Source: Patescibacteria group bacterium (lineage in GTDB: Bacteria > Patescibacteriota > Patescibacteriia > UBA10025 > JAHIVO01). Taken from it: a DNA stretch of 64,000 nucleotides. The notes below the pieces were generated by a model. It was not told the origin of the DNA, did no database searches, and was given only the letters and a program-made list of their open reading frames with translations. Position 1 is the first letter of the stretch. Each line of letters begins with the position of its first letter. This document shows, in pieces, positions 1 to 44,137 of this stretch. The stretch covers positions 119,770 to 183,769 of the forward strand of contig JBAZKE010000001.1 of the NCBI GenBank assembly GCA_041650915.1, written 5' to 3'. Both the position numbers and the translations under genes were made by a program.

Positions 1-528
1 CAGGGAGTGGTTTTGAGCGCAGCGGACATGTCAGCGGAGGAACGGGCAATTATTGCGGATTTGCACCTGCTCACTATCAAACCCATGCTGTACGTACTGA
101 ATGTAGATGAGGACGCGGCTGCCACCGAGGTGCCCGGGCGCATCGTCATCTGCGCCAAGGTAGAGTCAGAGCTCGCTGAAATGCCGGAAAAAGAAGCAGC
201 GGAGTACCTTCAGACGCTCGGCCTGCAGTTGTCCGGGCTCGACAGGCTTATTGCGGCAGCGTACGAACGTCTCGGGCTCATCACCTTCTTTACCGCCGGT
301 CCGACTGAGGTGCACGCGTGGGCGGTTGAGCGCGGATCTACCGCTCCCCAGGCAGGGGGGAAGATACACTCGGATTTTGAAGAAAAGTTCATACGTGCCG
401 AGGTAATCAGCTGGGAGGACATCGTGCGGTACCGTGGGGAACAGGGTGCAAAAGAGAATGGCAAGATGCGCATTGAAGGCCGTGAGTACGTGATGCAGGA
501 CGGCGATGTCGTGTATATCCGCATTTGA
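1..528 (+). CDS. ychF: Ribosome-binding ATPase YchF, C-terminal part (5' truncated by window edge)
   Basis: Translation ends ...TAPQAGGKIHSDFEEKFIRAEVISWEDIV...DGDVVYIRI, typical TGS/C-terminal domain of YchF/Ola1; frame open to position 1. Confidence 0.85.
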   Translation, partial: QGVVLSAADMSAEERAIIADLHLLTIKPMLYVLNVDEDAAATEVPGRIVICAKVESELAEMPEKEAAEYLQTLGLQLSGLDRLIAAAYERLGLITFFTAGPTEVHAWAVERGSTAPQAGGKIHSDFEEKFIRAEVISWEDIVRYRGEQGAKENGKMRIEGREYVMQDGDVVYIRI

Positions 529-960
529 GAAAGCTGCCCGGCTGTAGTATACTGGAAGAGGAGGGAGCCGCTCTTTCAAAAATATTTTTCAGCGAGCTCC
601 CGTAACCTTTCTGTGCAGAAAGGAGGCTTATATTAGTATATATTCAGGGCGGCGCCTGGACAACCACCTGCTCAGGCGGGCCATGTGGTACGCGCGGATG
701 AAGCTGCGCGCGGTTGCAGGATCCATTGTTTATCCGAAAGGAGGCAACCGTATGATTGCATTGTGTAACCGTCCTCAGCACGGGAGATGAGAGGAGGTGA
801 TCCATTTTTTTGATCCTTGCCGAGCTCCCGGCCTTCCAGGGCATAGGGTAGGGACCCCTAAATACAGAACCCTGGTCGAATGCGATTGGAGGTGATTATC
901 TTCCTCACGAAAGGTATTTTTGCAAAGAATACTGGGGTGCCATTGGCGCCCCAGGTTTTT

Positions 961-2199
961 TCACGTTTTTTTGAAGATAAAGATTTCCCGCTGTACCTTT
1001 TGGTCGGGGCGTTGGTATATGATGGAGCCGCGTGCGGTCGGGCCTGCCTTTGCGAACAGGGACATTTTTTCAGGAAAGGGGTTGGCCCGGCAGAAGCCCA
1101 TGGCGTGCAGCTGCTCGAGAATTTTAAGGGTGTACACTCCGTGTTCGAGCGTGAAAAGGGGGAACACGATGACGGCCGCTCCACGGGGCTTGAGAATGCT
1201 CGCAAAGGAAGTGAACGCGCTCAGGTATAGCGACTCGAGCTCAGCAATGATTCCGAGCATCTGCTGAGCATCGGCATTTTTGGCATTCGGAGGCCCGAGG
1301 TAGGGCTCGGTTACGATAAGGTCGATTGATCCAGGCGCCAGCTTGCCGGCCAGGTTTTTGACGTCGCACTCGTACAGTTCCGCGCGCGTCGATGCTGCGG
1401 CACCGTATTGGGTCGCGAGCCACGCCAGATTTTTTTTCGTATCCAGCATTGCTTTGCTGCTGATATCGCTCCCGGTAATGTGCCGTACGCCCCGGAGCAG
1501 CGCTTCCTGCAGGATAGTGCCTGAGCCGCAGAACGGGTCGAGCAGACGGCTGTCGCTCCGTACACCGCCCAGGTTGAGCATAATCTTCGCGAGCTTGGGG
1601 GGGAGCATGCCTGAGCGGGCATCTCGGTTTGGCCTGCCGTAGTCCCTGCGCGAGTACTCCTCAAAATCTTGGATCGTGAGCGTCGTCCCGAGGTAGGATG
1701 CGTGGATACCGTTAATGACGAGGATATCGGCACCGCGGTCAAGCACTTTGTTCTTTTCGATCTGAACGCTCGTCAGTGCGCCGTCTTCCGCGGCGATGAA
1801 CCGGCCGGGCAAGCCGCTCCTGCGGATCTGGCGTTTCAGGTCGAGGCCGACGGACTTCAGCTTCGTGCGGTACTGTTTGGATACTTCTCCGTACAACGAG
1901 AACCCGAAAATAACCTTGCGCTCCCCCTGGGCGAGGAGCTGCTTGATGTTTGGCAGGGACAGACCCTCAATGAGCGCATCGAGGTCTTGGTACTGGGAGG
2001 TGACGGAGCCGATCTTTATGCAGCCGCCGAGGGCGTGCTGCCATGCATCGGCATCGATGCCGCCTGAACTGTCGACGATGAGGGCATTGCTTGTCAGGTC
2101 CACTATGGTGAGCCGGACGCCGCAAACAGCCTCGTAGCTGAAAATTTCAGCGAGGGATAGCTGGGGATTTTTGCCTAAGATAAAGCCGTACCGTGCCAT
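961..2199 (-). CDS. THUMP-domain SAM-dependent RNA (tRNA guanine-N2-like) methyltransferase
   Basis: SAM-binding motif DPFCGSGTILQEA, catalytic-like TEPYLGPP, N-terminal THUMP-like region; start chosen at MARYGFILGK (ATG 2199) rather than the upstream in-frame Met. Confidence 0.7.
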   Translation of the reverse strand: MARYGFILGKNPQLSLAEIFSYEAVCGVRLTIVDLTSNALIVDSSGGIDADAWQHALGGCIKIGSVTSQYQDLDALIEGLSLPNIKQLLAQGERKVIFGFSLYGEVSKQYRTKLKSVGLDLKRQIRRSGLPGRFIAAEDGALTSVQIEKNKVLDRGADILVINGIHASYLGTTLTIQDFEEYSRRDYGRPNRDARSGMLPPKLAKIMLNLGGVRSDSRLLDPFCGSGTILQEALLRGVRHITGSDISSKAMLDTKKNLAWLATQYGAAASTRAELYECDVKNLAGKLAPGSIDLIVTEPYLGPPNAKNADAQQMLGIIAELESLYLSAFTSFASILKPRGAAVIVFPLFTLEHGVYTLKILEQLHAMGFCRANPFPEKMSLFAKAGPTARGSIIYQRPDQKVQREIFIFKKT

Positions 2200-3621: not shown

Positions 3622-4188
3622 ATGCTCGCCATCAATGATTTAAAAGCAGGAACGTACGTGGTCCTCAACGGTGACCCGTTTGTTATCATGAAGCACAGTT
3701 TCGTAAAGATGGGGCGCGGACAGGGAGTCATGCGCACGACGGTCAGAAATCTGAAGACTGGCAAGACCCTCGAGCAGACATTCAAGGGACAGGATAAGGT
3801 TGAGCAGGCTGACATCAGCAGGTCAAAGGCGAATTATCTGTACGAGGATGGCGGCCAGTTTTTTTTCATGGATGCGGGAACGTATGACCAGTTTTTCATA
3901 ACGAAGGAGCAGCTCGGGGAGGGCCTGGCGCAGTTCCTCAAGGAGAACCTCGAGGTTGACGTCCTCAACTTCAACAAGGTGCCGATCACCGTTGAGCTGC
4001 CGAAAAAAATGACGTACGAGGTTACTTCATCGCCGCCCGGCATACGGGGAGATACGGCGCAGGGCTCAGTCACCAAAAAGGTGACGCTCGAGACTGGCTA
4101 TGTGCTTGATGCGCCGCTCTTCATCGAGCAGGGCGATGTCGTTGAGATCAACACGGAAACAGGCAAATACGTCGGCAAGGCGAACTAA
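3622..4188 (+). CDS. efp: Elongation factor P
   Basis: MLAINDLKAGTYVVLNGDPFVI...KMGRGQGVMRTTVRNLKTGK; full three-domain EF-P; ATG at 3622 right after rpsR stop. Confidence 0.9.
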   Translation: MLAINDLKAGTYVVLNGDPFVIMKHSFVKMGRGQGVMRTTVRNLKTGKTLEQTFKGQDKVEQADISRSKANYLYEDGGQFFFMDAGTYDQFFITKEQLGEGLAQFLKENLEVDVLNFNKVPITVELPKKMTYEVTSSPPGIRGDTAQGSVTKKVTLETGYVLDAPLFIEQGDVVEINTETGKYVGKAN

Positions 4189-4207
4189 CTTACCGGCACA
4201 GTCTGTA

Positions 4208-4242
4208 CAAAAAAGAGAGAGCCCACCTCGGGAGGCGGGCTC
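4208..4242 (-). terminator. Rho-independent terminator for minus-strand GalT-like gene
   Basis: Hairpin gagcccacctc/gaggcgggctc (perfect with one G.U on the minus-strand RNA, A.C mismatch on plus) followed on minus strand by UCUCUUUUUUG. Confidence 0.55.
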
Positions 4243-4264
4243 ATTGTTAGGGATGTTCGAAATG

Positions 4265-5416
4265 TTACTGTTCGACCCACTGCCTGATTTGGTCCGGAGG
4301 CTGCTTCAGTATCTGAGCCGCAAATTCGGGCGGGACGGGGTTAATGCTCGTCTGAATGAACTCCTCAATTTCAGACGGGAGCTCCGGGAATTGCGGCACG
4401 ATCGTGATCGAGTAGTGGTACATTGATTCGATCATTGATCGTGAGAGCGGTTGGCTCAGGAACCCTGCATCGAGCGTGAAGCGCTCCGGTCCATTCCTGA
4501 GGATGAGGTAATACGGGAATCGGTCACCCAGCAGCGCCCCGAGTTTTGCGACAGAGTCCTGGATGAGCGCCCCGAGCTCCCCGAAGAGTTCAGGAGGAGT
4601 TGCCTCATACTGCGAGTAGTGATCGAGCGGTGTAATGCAGATCGTGAACGGTGACTGGCTCGCGTACGGTACCAACGCGAGAAAATGTTCGGTAGAGCCA
4701 ACGGTGAGCGTTCCTTCCCGTTCAATCCGGATGATATCGCATACCGGACAGCGTTCGTGCTGCATGTAGAAGCGGTAGAGCTGGGGCATTTCGAGCCGCA
4801 GCGCGATCGAGACGTGCGATACGCCTACAATCTGTACGTGCGTGTGGCTCAAGCCGCGCTCACTGACGACACTGTTTCCTCCGATTCCAATGATGAGTTC
4901 GGGGAGCATTATGATGTCGCTCTGATCGTGAATGTGCTTGAGCGAGAGAATCCGTTCTCTGCAGATTCTGAGCGCTGCGGCAAATACTGCGGGAGGAATT
5001 TCGGGCAGCGTGCTCCCGTGATCGGGAAACAGCACGCGTTCGCGCACGCCGAATGGGCTTTTGATGTTGTAGAGCCCCCGGACCCCTTCCCTGATGAGAG
5101 TTTGCGTGACGAGGAAGCTGAGGCCTCGCAATGTGGTAACCCGTATGCCGTCGCGATTCATGATGTCGGGATTGACCGCACCGCAATTCGGAATGCAGAA
5201 GTTGCACCATTCCTCCGGCGGCTGGTGTACCGAAATGCCACCGTGGTTTGCACGGAAAGCAAGGGCGAAGGTACGTACCTTTTCGAGCTGTTCTCCGGCA
5301 TCAGCGCCATCCGGTGGACGTATTGCTGTCCACGTGCCATTGAGCAGGCTCTGCCGCATATGAGATCCATGCAGGCCAACGGCACCGACCGTTGCTGCGA
5401 TATGCGAAGGGCACAT
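4265..5416 (-). CDS. GalT/HIT-family nucleotidyltransferase (galactose-1-phosphate uridylyltransferase-like)
   Basis: Zn-site-like CNFCIPNCG and active-site-like HTHVQIVG (HxHxQ) in first half, second CPVC in second half; two-HIT-half architecture. Confidence 0.5.
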   Translation of the reverse strand: MCPSHIAATVGAVGLHGSHMRQSLLNGTWTAIRPPDGADAGEQLEKVRTFALAFRANHGGISVHQPPEEWCNFCIPNCGAVNPDIMNRDGIRVTTLRGLSFLVTQTLIREGVRGLYNIKSPFGVRERVLFPDHGSTLPEIPPAVFAAALRICRERILSLKHIHDQSDIIMLPELIIGIGGNSVVSERGLSHTHVQIVGVSHVSIALRLEMPQLYRFYMQHERCPVCDIIRIEREGTLTVGSTEHFLALVPYASQSPFTICITPLDHYSQYEATPPELFGELGALIQDSVAKLGALLGDRFPYYLILRNGPERFTLDAGFLSQPLSRSMIESMYHYSITIVPQFPELPSEIEEFIQTSINPVPPEFAAQILKQPPDQIRQWVEQ

Positions 5417-41173: not shown

Positions 41174-41249
41174 TCCGGGGTAGTTGAGTTGGTACAACGC
41201 CGCACTGTTAATGCGGATATCGCTGGTTCGAATCCAGCCCCCGGAGCCA
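41174..41249 (+). tRNA. tRNA-Asn (anticodon GTT), copy 2, CCA encoded
   Basis: Acceptor TCCGGGG/CCCCGGA, anticodon stem CCGCA/TGCGG loop CTGTTAA, T-arm GCTGG-TTCGAAT-CCAGC, 3' GCCA; sequence clearly different from copy 1. Confidence 0.85.
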
Positions 41250-41280: not shown

Positions 41281-41580
41281 TATGGCATCTGGGGATTTAT
41301 TGAGGATTTTGCCCTAAAACTCGGCAAGCAGGGGGTGCGGGTTAACGCCATCGCCCCGGGCGGCGTGGTCACTGAAGGTGTGGCTAAGATGGGCGAAGCG
41401 GCAGCTACTACTGGTATTGACATGAAGGAGATGACCAAGCAATTCATGGCTTAGATACTGCTCGGACGCATGGGCGAACCTGATGGGATTGGCGCGGCAG
41501 TATTATTGCTTGCAAGCGATGCTTCCGCGTACATGACCGGTTCAATGATTGTCGTTGACGGCGGAGCACTGTTGGCATAA
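41281..41580 (+). pseudogene. Short-chain dehydrogenase/reductase (SDR) C-terminal fragment with in-frame stop
   Basis: Frame translates ...ALKLGKQGVRVNAIAPGGVVTEG...[48 protein letters not shown]: typical SDR C-terminus lacking N-terminal Rossmann part and interrupted by TAG at 41452. Confidence 0.65.
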
Positions 41581-41792: not shown

Positions 41793-42662
41793 ATGATTTC
41801 CGAACGTACAGTCCTGCATCAGAAAGGTATTCCCGTGGTCGTTATTCTGCTTGTATTGCTTATCGCTTGGGTAGCGTTATCTATCTGGGCTGGCTCCGAA
41901 GAGAACGAGATCGGCGTCACCGTTGCGGTTTTCCTGTTGACCGTGACGATATTTTGCTGCCGTGGACTCATCATCGTGAACCCGAACCAGGCTACGGTCG
42001 TGCAGCTGTTTGGGAAGTACTCAGGCTCGGTCAAACAGGCCGGCTTTTGGTGGGTCAACCCGTTCACGACCAGAAAAACGGTTTCCTTGCGGATCCACAA
42101 CTTCGAGACCGGCAAGCTCAAAGTCAATGACCAGGATGGCAATCCGATAGAAATTGCCGCCGTCGTGGTATGGAATGTCGTCGATACGGCTGAAGCCGCG
42201 TTCAACGTGGAAGACTACAAGGATTTTGTTCACGTGCAGAGTGAGGCCGCAGTTCGCAACTTGGCAACCTCATTCCCCTACGATGCGCACGAAGAGGGAA
42301 AGCAGTCTTTGCGCGGCAATACCAATGAGATAGCGGTCGAGCTGCAGAAAGAAATCCAGGACCGCCTCGCCAAGGCCGGAATCACGGTCATTGAGGCGCG
42401 CATCAGCCACCTGGCGTACGCGCCGGAAATTGCCAGTGCCATGCTCCGGCGGCAGCAGGCGAACGCCATTATCGCCGCGCGCCAGCGCATTGTCGAGGGT
42501 GCGGTCAGCATGGTCCAGATGGCGCTGACGCAACTGGAGGAAAGCCATACGGTGAAGCTCGATGAGGAACGGAAAGCTGCAATGGTATCAAATTTACTGG
42601 TGGTTTTAACCAGTGATCGCGATGCGCAGCCGGTTGTGAACACCGGTACGCTCTATCAATAA
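41793..42662 (+). CDS. SPFH/band-7 (stomatin/prohibitin-like) domain membrane protein
   Basis: N-terminal TM then SPFH core (LIIVNPNQATVVQLFGKYSG...FETGKLKVNDQDGNPIEIAAVVVWNVVD) and C-terminal coiled coil. Confidence 0.75.
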   Translation: MISERTVLHQKGIPVVVILLVLLIAWVALSIWAGSEENEIGVTVAVFLLTVTIFCCRGLIIVNPNQATVVQLFGKYSGSVKQAGFWWVNPFTTRKTVSLRIHNFETGKLKVNDQDGNPIEIAAVVVWNVVDTAEAAFNVEDYKDFVHVQSEAAVRNLATSFPYDAHEEGKQSLRGNTNEIAVELQKEIQDRLAKAGITVIEARISHLAYAPEIASAMLRRQQANAIIAARQRIVEGAVSMVQMALTQLEESHTVKLDEERKAAMVSNLLVVLTSDRDAQPVVNTGTLYQ

Positions 42663-42841
42663 TGGCGAACGCGAACGGGCAAAAGCGGTTTTTACTGCGC
42701 GTAGAGTCCGGTTTGTACGATGCGCTCCAGCGGCTGGCGCGGGACGAATACCGGAGCGTCAATGGGTTGATCGAGTGGATGCTTGCTGACGCGCTGCGCA
42801 AGCGGGGCCGGCTCCCGCAGAGCCGTGTGCCGAAGGGATAG
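42662..42841 (+). CDS. Small ribbon-helix-helix (CopG/Arc-like) putative DNA-binding protein, 59 aa
   Basis: MANANGQKRFLLRVESGLYDALQRLARDEYRSVNGLIEWMLADAL fits RHH beta-strand+two-helix pattern; TAATG overlap with SPFH stop; below 60-aa ORF-track cutoff. Confidence 0.45.
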   Translation: MANANGQKRFLLRVESGLYDALQRLARDEYRSVNGLIEWMLADALRKRGRLPQSRVPKG

Positions 42842-43116
42842 TGCCTGAGGCATGAATTCTGTTTGAGGAGCGCCGCTGCGAAGTTTGCCATTGGCAGCGG
42901 CGTGCCGCTGGCATCAGCGGGCAATATTAGAAAAAACGGTTACCATCGGGCAACCGTTTTTCGTTGAAAGAGCATTGATGCGCAAGATTGGATGAGCGCC
43001 TAACAGGACGTTGTTCCGGCGCTCGGCGGCAGGGCCATCTGGTTCAGGCTCCTGATTTCCCGCAGGACCAACAGCGGGCCGCGGCCATTTTCAGCATTCA
43101 TGGCAAACCTCTTCAC

Positions 43117-43398
43117 TCAATTCCAGACCTGCCCAACGCGGGCGCGCTGATCAGGGTCCAGTTCCCGAGCTGCGAGCTCCTTGAGCGCGAATCGGTACAG
43201 TTCTGGCCGCAGGGTTGGGAAATGGTGTGGGCTGGCCAATGTGATCAGCTGGCCGAATGTCAGAGCACTCACGGCTTCCTGTACTGCGGTTCCTGATTCA
43301 AGCGCATTCATGGAGTTTTCCCAGCCTGCGTAGACTTCCATGAATTTTTCCGGCAATCCATGGGGAAAGCTGGAGCCCAGTTGCAACTGCTTGTCCAT
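43117..43398 (-). CDS. Hypothetical protein, 93 aa
   Basis: Strong AGGAGG RBS 7 nt upstream of ATG (minus strand, 43398); no recognisable domain. Confidence 0.55.
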   Translation of the reverse strand: MDKQLQLGSSFPHGLPEKFMEVYAGWENSMNALESGTAVQEAVSALTFGQLITLASPHHFPTLRPELYRFALKELAARELDPDQRARVGQVWN

Positions 43399-43615
43399 GT
43401 GAGGACCTCCTTCTGTTTTTGGTGTTGAAAAAAGAACATAAAAAAACCGGCCTCGTTGGCCGGAATTCTGGAACGGTAGCTCTATTCGTTAAAAAATATT
43501 ATGCAGCACCAAGTGGCCAAGAGGATAAGGATTCCTTGTGGCGTGGCGGGATGTGGCTATAGAGAGTTGCGTGTTGCATACGAAGGCATATTATCATAAT
43601 GTATTGTCATGTCAA
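43399..43615 (-). promoter_or_regulatory. Putative cis-regulatory leader (attenuator/riboswitch-like): promoter, ~120-nt leader, intrinsic terminator, then RBS of 43117-43398
   Basis: Minus-strand promoter TTGACA (plus 43610-43615) -16 nt- TAATAT (plus 43588-43593); terminator hairpin ccggcc-aacga-ggccgg + U7 (plus 43440-43463); leader segment cuuggcc can pair with terminator 5' arm ggccaa (antiterminator). Confidence 0.4.
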
Positions 43616-43695
43616 TGGGTGCGCGCCTGAGGAACAATCCACGCGGAGCATAGCACCCGTGACCTCCTTTTTCCTATACGCACAGTGGCCTGCGG

Positions 43696-43704
43696 TGGTA
43701 TAAT
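43696..43704 (+). promoter_or_regulatory. Extended -10 promoter (TGgTATAAT) for 43739-44137 gene
   Basis: TGNTATAAT at 43696-43704, 35 nt upstream of ATG 43739. Confidence 0.45.
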
Positions 43705-43738
43705 AACCCTATCTTATTCATCATTATCAAATCATAGT

Positions 43739-44137
43739 ATGGCAGACCAAGAAAAAGAGAAAGGAAGTTGCCCTGAGTGCGGGTATCCTGCCGAAGCAGG
43801 GCATAGTCCGGCTTGCCCGGCAGGGGCGGGAAAAAGTGAAAATCAAGTGCCGGAAGCTGGCGAAAAAGAGGCCGATTCTCAGGAGCAGTATGCTGATTTT
43901 AGTGAAGTCGCCGACCTGTTTGCTGCAATGAGTACAGGCGATACACAGCGCGTGACTCTAGCGAATGGGCGTGAAGTGTTATTGGTTGTCGAAAAAAAAC
44001 TCGTCAGTATCGTTGAGGAAGTAGGCGGTGAAAAAATAGTGAGCCGTTTTTATCCTAATGGTACGGAGTTTGACCGGAAGTCCTTTCAGACGAGTGACGA
44101 GCTCCGGTGGGCACGGTTGAAACGGCGGGAGCGCTAG
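43739..44137 (+). CDS. Hypothetical protein with N-terminal zinc-ribbon-like CPECG...ACP motif
   Basis: MADQEKEKGSCPECGYPAEAGHSPACPAG then acidic linker and small C-terminal domain; start at ATG 43739 (upstream part of ORF is GTG-initiated and unlikely). Confidence 0.5.
   Translation: MADQEKEKGSCPECGYPAEAGHSPACPAGAGKSENQVPEAGEKEADSQEQYADFSEVADLFAAMSTGDTQRVTLANGREVLLVVEKKLVSIVEEVGGEKIVSRFYPNGTEFDRKSFQTSDELRWARLKRRER

Follow-up and report, generated by a model that had tools for sequence, protein, structure and literature searches.

Leader-peptide attenuation is a textbook mechanism of transcriptional control, and nearly all of its described examples are from cultivated Proteobacteria, Actinobacteria and a small number of other bacteria. 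In the proteobacterial leaders (trpL, hisL, leuL, thrL, pheL and ilv), a short ORF contains the regulatory codons, and the RNA can form a 1:2 pairing, a 2:3 antiterminator or a 3:4 intrinsic terminator. Termination is the default outcome, segment 1 is masked when a ribosome stalls at the regulatory codons, and the controlled genes serve biosynthesis of the cognate amino acid. T-box and riboswitch leaders show the order promoter, leader, terminator/antiterminator and RBS, and a proline-specific T-box is known on Bacillus proBA. In Salmonella, conserved Pro codons in mgtL and mgtP, which are the short leader ORFs of mgtA and mgtCBR, couple charged tRNA-Pro to downstream transcription and act through alternative stem-loops (PMC3641672). 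In mycobacteria, leaderless polycysteine short ORFs are Cys-responsive attenuators, in which a first-cistron ORF with amino-acid-specific codons tunes the downstream genes (bioRxiv 10.1101/834739). Our full-text literature search turned up no account of a leader-peptide attenuator for proline biosynthesis.

In this study, we analyzed a 64-kb stretch of DNA (hereafter the window) from a Patescibacteria metagenome-assembled genome (MAG), which contains a compact leader upstream of a small gene on the minus strand. We consider it probable that this element belongs to the ribosome-mediated (leader-peptide) transcription attenuators of the trp/his type, most likely sensing the supply of charged tRNA-Pro; the transcription start site, translation of its upstream ORF (uORF), stalling at the Pro codons and proline as the signal are what we infer. 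Like the proteobacterial leaders, it has a short ORF with regulatory codons, the same set of three pairings with termination as the predicted default, and a stall site at which a ribosome would cover segment 1. It differs from them in its proline codons, in a uORF that would start at the 5' end of the transcript and lacks a Shine-Dalgarno sequence, in having no sequence or covariance-model similarity to Rfam families, in its host (a Patescibacteria MAG and relatives), and in its target, which is a biosynthetic gene of the cognate amino acid in one locus and a small uncharacterised protein in eight of the nine. Short Pro-codon ORFs acting through alternative stem-loops are shared with mgtL and mgtP, whereas the sequences and hosts are unrelated, and the Salmonella ORFs sit in long multi-signal leaders controlling Mg2+ transporter and virulence genes, in contrast to the compact single attenuator with a canonical intrinsic terminator found here. 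The mycobacterial ORFs are leaderless, as is predicted for this one, and likewise use amino-acid-specific codons, but have Cys rather than Pro and belong to a different phylum. With T-box and riboswitch leaders the element shares the order of its parts and would likewise sense amino-acid supply, but it is without a specifier loop, T-box motif or aptamer, and the Rfam models do not match it.

The leader lies in a divergent intergenic region (43399-43738). The promoter that a sequence-only reading of this region had proposed (TTGACA-16-TAATAT) was found by consensus scan at 43615-43588 on the minus strand, with the -35 hexamer TTGACA at 43615-43610 and an extended -10 element, TGaTAATAT, at 43596-43588 (hexamer TAATAT at 43593-43588). 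With a 16-nt spacer, a TG before the -10 box and 10 of 12 consensus positions, it is the best match in the 2 kb scanned. The leader itself is present; counted from the likely start site through the last U of the U-tract, it is about 140 nt long, rather than the approximately 120 nt first estimated. The canonical terminator reported at its end proved to be perfect: CCGGCC-AACGA-GGCCGG followed by U7 was recovered by scans and folds at 43463-43440 (minus strand), with the hairpin at 43463-43447 and the U-tract at 43446-43440. The terminator at 43463 cannot be that of the upstream gene (43739-44137), which is encoded on the plus strand. The Shine-Dalgarno sequence GGAGG of the regulated gene, which starts with ATG at 43398, occupies 43410-43406; the terminator thus lies just before a strong RBS as described, with the U-tract ending 29 nt before GGAGG and not about 20 nt. 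Between the terminator and the RBS there is a semi-conserved motif, GTTCTTTTTTCAA (43425-43437, minus strand), of which GTTC(N)TTYCAA-like versions occur in most related leaders. This motif is at the same position between U-tract and RBS in L048, L054, L055, L056 and L057, and in L054 it could pair with the Shine-Dalgarno region.

The divergent ORF at 43739-44137 encodes 132 aa with a CPECG...CP motif and is preceded by an extended -10 element (TGgTATAAT, at about 43694-43702), with no clear Shine-Dalgarno sequence. A word-indexed search of 5.8 billion proteins revealed no homologue of this ORF, matching only itself. No second copy of the leader was found in the 64-kb window or in related contigs. 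In two other assemblies of the same organism the locus is 100% identical, and thus no population variation could be used.

Homologues of the downstream gene provided the comparison. A total of nine distinct leaders, some of which are close relatives of one another, were compared: that of the window, that of its closest relative L047 (55% protein identity), and seven leaders of a different type, here called group 2 (L048, L049, L054, L055, L056, L057 and L058). Each homologous locus reads TTGAC[AG], a 16-18-nt spacer, TAnnnT, 8-10 nt and an ATG-initiated uORF of 23-26 codons, followed by a hairpin, about 40 nt, an intrinsic terminator, about 30 nt, the RBS and the ATG of the gene. TTGAC[AG] is at the same place and TAnnnT follows after 16-18 nt in all nine leaders. 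The promoter-leader-terminator-RBS order claimed for the window was found with every element on the minus strand and with the same layout upstream of all seven homologous genes found elsewhere (7/7); since the architecture recurs in this way, the arrangement, as judged from sequence, is not a product of chance. The leader has been kept in every relative that carries the downstream gene, which is the opposite of the outcome that the sequence-only reading had named as refuting it.

The window uORF (43579-43499, minus strand) comprises 26 codons followed by TAA and encodes MQHATLYSHIPPRHKESLSSWPLGAA. Its ATG is located 8 nt after the -10 box, and no Shine-Dalgarno sequence precedes it. An ORF of this kind is kept in all nine leaders (23-26 codons), and in each the distance from the -10 hexamer to the ATG is 8-10 nt. 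Such a start, lacking a Shine-Dalgarno sequence so close to the -10 hexamer, indicates a leaderless or nearly leaderless message. The mRNA is thus predicted to be leaderless or nearly so, with a start site placed from the -10 box alone; a 5' UTR of 1-3 nt would be as likely as a truly leaderless start. Across the nine leaders, the uORF frame contains no stop codon, against 9 and 8 in the other two frames, and only one of 2000 composition-preserving shuffles kept all nine uORFs open. All nine stops fall within nt 70-79.

The peptides encoded in the other leaders are MHRNTQYNQIPPRQQESISSWPPVAA (L047), MQNAICQIPPQNHLTHVSRFGLGA (L057), MQNAICQTPPQNHLTYVSRFGLDL (L055), MKNIALQPQPQKQLIKVSRFMLRR (L048), MINKNLQPQPPKKLTRVSRFVLW (L049), MKNNALQPNPEKELTYVGCFEFHR (L054), MHYCRSHNPQPERTDRGQSFHAVHNH (L056) and MYQSLPKPQPENHLTQSVVSLRA (L058). 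The sole feature common to all nine is the presence of two or three Pro codons, as PP or PxP, in codons 6-12, so that every uORF has at least two Pro codons in this interval. In the window they are CCG CCA (codons 11-12; 43549-43544, minus strand), which form the end of an Ile-Pro-Pro at codons 10-12. Most leaders have PxP rather than a run of Pro, and each has only two or three Pro codons. In L058 (1 nt in the hairpin loop) and L056, indels of a length not divisible by three have removed the C-terminal 'VSRF' peptide; these indels lie before or after the Pro codons, and both the nucleotide segment GUCAGUCGUUU and the in-frame Pro codons were retained. The 3' half of the uORF is therefore conserved as RNA and the 5' half as in-frame Pro codons. 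Third-position changes are in modest excess in the uORF, and RNA pairing accounts for part of that excess.

The RNA of the window leader can adopt alternative folds. In its minimum free energy (MFE) fold, segment 1 (GCCAcaAGGA, 43542-43533, minus strand) is the 5' arm of an anti-antiterminator hairpin, whose other arm is segment 2 (UCCUcuUGGCC, 43525-43515, minus strand). Folds and duplex energies indicate that segment 2 pairs with either segment 1 or segment 3 (GGCCAAcGAGG, 43461-43451, minus strand), and segment 3 overlaps the terminator from the 5' arm through the loop to the second nucleotide of the 3' arm. The leader therefore has both an antiterminator and an upstream hairpin that holds the antiterminator strand. 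The complementarity to the terminator 5' arm noticed earlier (UUGGCC with GGCCAA) is real and extends to 10 bp with one bulge. The resulting 2:3 duplex between UCCUCUUGGCC and GGCCAA(C)GAGG has an energy of -16.6 kcal/mol, which was matched by 3 of 1000 dinucleotide shuffles; the folding check thus bears out the suggested antiterminator, as terminator and antiterminator are mutually exclusive. Outside the segment 1 hairpin, an outer helix joins 43579-43567, which includes the uORF start codon, to 43512-43501, which covers the final codons of the uORF together with the first nucleotide of its stop (both minus strand, MFE folds).

These structures recur in the relatives. In L047, the segment 1 hairpin is kept with changes in the loop and an internal loop, the outer helix is kept with a different sequence (GCAACA:UGUUGC), and the 2:3 duplex has an energy of -13.9 kcal/mol (matched by 13 of 1000 shuffles), its bulge being shifted by an AC-to-CA swap in the loop. 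RNAalifold analysis of group 2 yielded the terminator and three stacked helices (P1) that start in the Pro-codon region and reach the uORF end, with compensatory changes in five pairs. The 5' arm and loop of the terminator, AAACGGCUGAC, are complementary to GUCAGUCGUUU, the inner hairpin's 3' strand, and this 11-bp antiterminator pairing is formed in 94.8% of alignment cells. Antiterminator duplexes in group 2 range from -13 to -22 kcal/mol; those of five leaders were matched by 0-2 of 500 shuffles, and those of L055 and L057, in a shifted register, by 12 and 21 of 500. The terminator is at this place in all nine leaders and is present in the fold of each free leader. Between the window type and group 2, segments 1-3 are wholly different in sequence and yet all three pairings are kept, which, at the level of sequence comparison, is the strongest covariation evidence available.

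The cassette as a whole, rather than its surroundings, is what the window and L047 have in common. In the core and the terminator, the leaders of L047 and the window align position by position, the aligned core being ATCCCGCC(A/G)CGCCA..AGGAATCC...TCCTCTTGGCCAC..TG.TGCTGCATAA. When window positions 42934-43586 were aligned with L047 positions 3814-4423, the leader, the gene and the 3' terminator alone were similar, and the flanking genes differed. Neighbouring genes differ in every locus examined. This pattern suggests that the cassette has been relocated as a unit or sits in fast-changing regions. A contig scan with the neighbouring SpoU methylase gave only matches of about 30% identity, and thus no close relatives or synteny information were obtained from it. 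The group-2 covariance model scored the window leader at 13.4 bits (E = 0.59; the top hit in the 64 kb, with exact ends) and the L047 leader at 15.4 bits. As the model detects both only weakly, RNA-level homology between the two groups is marginal, and the link between them is drawn from gene orthology, an identical architecture and a uORF of the IPP type.

The proposal that this is a cis-regulatory leader or attenuator stands, given the mutually exclusive structures and their retention in relatives; the riboswitch version of it is not supported. No conserved aptamer-like fold was found, the 5' third of the leader is poorly conserved, and the consensus is a single stacked hairpin plus terminator. 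As the sequence-only reading had noted by eye, no known riboswitch consensus is present: in an Rfam scan of the window at gathering thresholds, only tRNAs passed, and under permissive settings the best matches in the leader had E = 8-9. Rfam searches of eight related loci gave no match in the leader at E ≤ 1. What was found instead is a conserved leader ORF with conserved Pro codons and a terminator between this ORF and the gene. An apparently leaderless uORF of 23-26 codons, whose Pro codons immediately precede the first hairpin arm, characterises ribosome-mediated attenuation and not a ligand-binding RNA.

A working model for the window leader can be outlined as follows. Transcription from the sigma-70-type promoter would begin at the uORF AUG or 1-3 nt before it, and the uORF would be translated as a leaderless message. 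With no ribosome, or with one that runs through to the UAA, segment 2 would be held by segment 1 or covered by the ribosome; the CCGGCC/GGCCGG-U7 terminator would then form, and transcription would stop 29 nt before the RBS. A ribosome stalled at Pro-Pro (codons 11-12) would cover segment 1, which starts 2 nt further on. Segment 2 would thereby be freed to pair with segment 3 inside the terminator, no terminator would form, and RNA polymerase would enter the gene.

We examined the effect of ribosome position by placing a 27-nt mask at each P-site codon and computing the equilibrium probability of the terminator stem. In group 2, the terminator probability fell from about 0.9 to 0.0-0.4 at codons of approximately 8-12, the Pro codons included; in L049 and L058 the fall began at codon 5, and L049 dipped again near the stop codon. 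The L047 leader showed a low terminator probability at most positions, with a minimum of about 0.1 at Pro11. For the window leader, the probability decreased from 0.8 to 0.6, with the minimum when the P site was at Pro11, and under the mask the terminator was still the MFE structure (-20.6 vs about -18 kcal/mol). The small size of this drop reflects the stability of the six-GC terminator, which exceeds that of the antiterminator state by about 2.6 kcal/mol. In this equilibrium model, the thermodynamic switch of the window leader itself is weak. Classical attenuators likewise have terminators that are more stable than their antiterminators, and the outcome is set kinetically. A truncated-transcript ('co-transcriptional') version of the stall scan gave no discrimination between positions.

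The regulated gene had been read as encoding an unknown 93-aa protein, which is also the annotated product. It is actually an ORF of 132 codons (43398-43000, minus strand) with an in-frame TGA at 43119-43117, and the part after the stop aligns with homologues of 120-126 aa. The 38 codons after the TGA are about 80% identical to the closest homologue, and in the alignment the window sequence WN*VKRFAMNAENGRGPLL corresponds to WSYVRRHAMNAENGLGPLL of P0003. An alternative genetic code was considered and rejected, since TGA ends 9 of the 43 long ORFs in the window. With TGA an ordinary stop in the window, the gene is either a recent nonsense mutant or read through. Downstream, an end-of-unit terminator consisting of ACGGTTGCCCGATGGTAACCGT and a T-run was detected by terminator scan at 42957-42930 (minus strand), with a homologous one after the L047 gene, and the transcription unit therefore has a proper end; in a stricter scan, the two strands of the 64 kb together had about ten such terminators.

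A word-indexed search with the 93-aa protein matched only the protein itself (a hypothetical protein from a 'Patescibacteria group bacterium' MAG at NCBI). An exhaustive HMMER search against 1.84 billion representative proteins identified seven homologous clusters of 120-126 aa and 32-55% identity, and a subsequent profile search added no further homologues. The family consists of small all-alpha proteins with no recognisable metabolic fold, and in the eight loci in which they follow the leader they are without a known link to proline. In L048 (301-1074), two tandem paralogues, P0006 and then P0004, which are 54% identical and 15 nt apart, follow a single leader.

On the other side of the regulated gene, a SPFH/Band-7 gene overlaps by one base a 59-aa Arc/ribbon-helix-helix gene (41793-42841, plus strand), and this pair converges on the attenuator-controlled gene. 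Farther away, tRNA-Asn(GTT) (41174-41249, plus strand) is followed by two short ORFs (41335-41580) that resemble C-terminal fragments of a short-chain dehydrogenase (SDR) and are probably a truncated pseudogene. Synteny of these fragments with the SDR gene of L047 was rejected, as tblastn gave no match.

One further locus bears on the connection to proline. A metagenome scan was carried out with a DNA pattern built from segments 2-4, the Pro-stall hypothesis having been set out beforehand. The scan returned L054 again, together with two new loci, L057 and L058, whose conservation in segments 2-4 is biased by the retrieval pattern that fixed those segments. In L057, the leader is upstream of another member of the small-protein family; the same 8.3-kb contig contains a nearly complete bacterial 16S rRNA gene (1-1372, minus strand). 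In L058, the leader is directly upstream of proC, encoding pyrroline-5-carboxylate reductase (TIGR00112, 260.6 bits against a cutoff of 196.75; also Pfam P5CR_dimer). Its uORF, beginning MYQSLPKPQPENH, contains three Pro codons. The search pattern specified none of these codons, nor the spacing of the promoter, the position of the ATG (8 nt from the -10 box) or the place of the stop (nt 70). About 80 nt after proC there is a gene with a tRNA-binding domain (Pfam tRNA_bind), possibly in the same operon; leader, proC and this gene lie in L058 4416-5820. Among the nine loci, proC is the target in L058 only, and the uncharacterised all-alpha protein is the target in the window and seven others. 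An attenuator with a Pro-codon uORF before the enzyme for the last step of proline synthesis would be expected of a prolyl-tRNA sensor. We tentatively propose that these leaders may form an undescribed family of proline-starvation attenuators in Patescibacteria and related uncultured bacteria, controlling proC and the all-alpha family (about eight clusters worldwide).

The same architecture could also respond to a broader signal, namely general translation stress at Pro motifs (EF-P shortage, loss of the m1G37 tRNA modification or ribosome-targeting antibiotics), in which case the small protein would be a translation-stress factor. The leaders of the window, L047, L055 and L057 do contain a true Pro-Pro (IPPR, IPPQ or TPPQ) of the EF-P-dependent kind, but most group-2 leaders have PxP (QPQP, QPNP, KPQP), which is not the classical EF-P-dependent motif. 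The absence of a recognisable metabolic fold in the regulated protein would suit this reading, as would the reported response of Salmonella Pro-codon leader ORFs to both proline and EF-P (PMC3641672); the control of proC by one leader, however, is what a proline sensor should display. On balance, general stress at Pro motifs appears unlikely to be the signal.

Less likely still is an attenuator that works at the level of RNA only, with an incidental ORF and a first hairpin that is stabilised or opened by a ligand or by an RNA-binding protein recognising the C/A-rich (G/A)CCAC repeats. The window leader does contain GCCAC four times, segment 2 retains its nucleotide sequence where the C-terminal peptide has been lost (L056 and L058), several 'synonymous' changes are in fact compensatory base-pair changes, and the uORF lacks a Shine-Dalgarno sequence. 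An incidental ORF, however, would not be expected to be open in all nine leaders against a total of 17 stops in the other frames, with its ATG at a fixed distance from the -10 box and with in-frame Pro codons that survive indels. Moreover, the positions at which a ribosome destabilises the terminator coincide with the Pro codons, and neither a conserved multi-helix aptamer nor an Rfam match was found. A stand-alone trans-acting small RNA of about 140 nt, with the downstream ORF a pseudogene here that is expressed by leakage, is very improbable. In its favour are a strong promoter and a strong terminator, the nonsense codon that interrupts the ORF in this genome, and the reported ability of terminated attenuator RNAs to act in trans in other bacteria (bioRxiv 10.1101/606483). 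In the loci examined, however, the element never stands alone and always precedes the RBS of a gene by about 30 nt, the downstream homologues are intact elsewhere, and a role in trans would add to attenuation and not replace it.

Annotation pipelines miss uORFs of this kind and split the regulated gene at its in-frame TGA. If the reading as a proline-sensing leader-peptide attenuator is true, this would be the first report of an amino-acid leader-peptide attenuator from Patescibacteria and related uncultured bacteria, and it would make available a compact proline-responsive genetic switch of about 140 nt. The orphan protein family would gain a functional handle, that is, induction upon proline shortage, and the protein would be part of proline homeostasis or of the response to a shortage of prolyl-tRNA. 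It would also mean that uncultured bacteria with reduced genomes sense the charging of a single tRNA by transcription-translation coupling.
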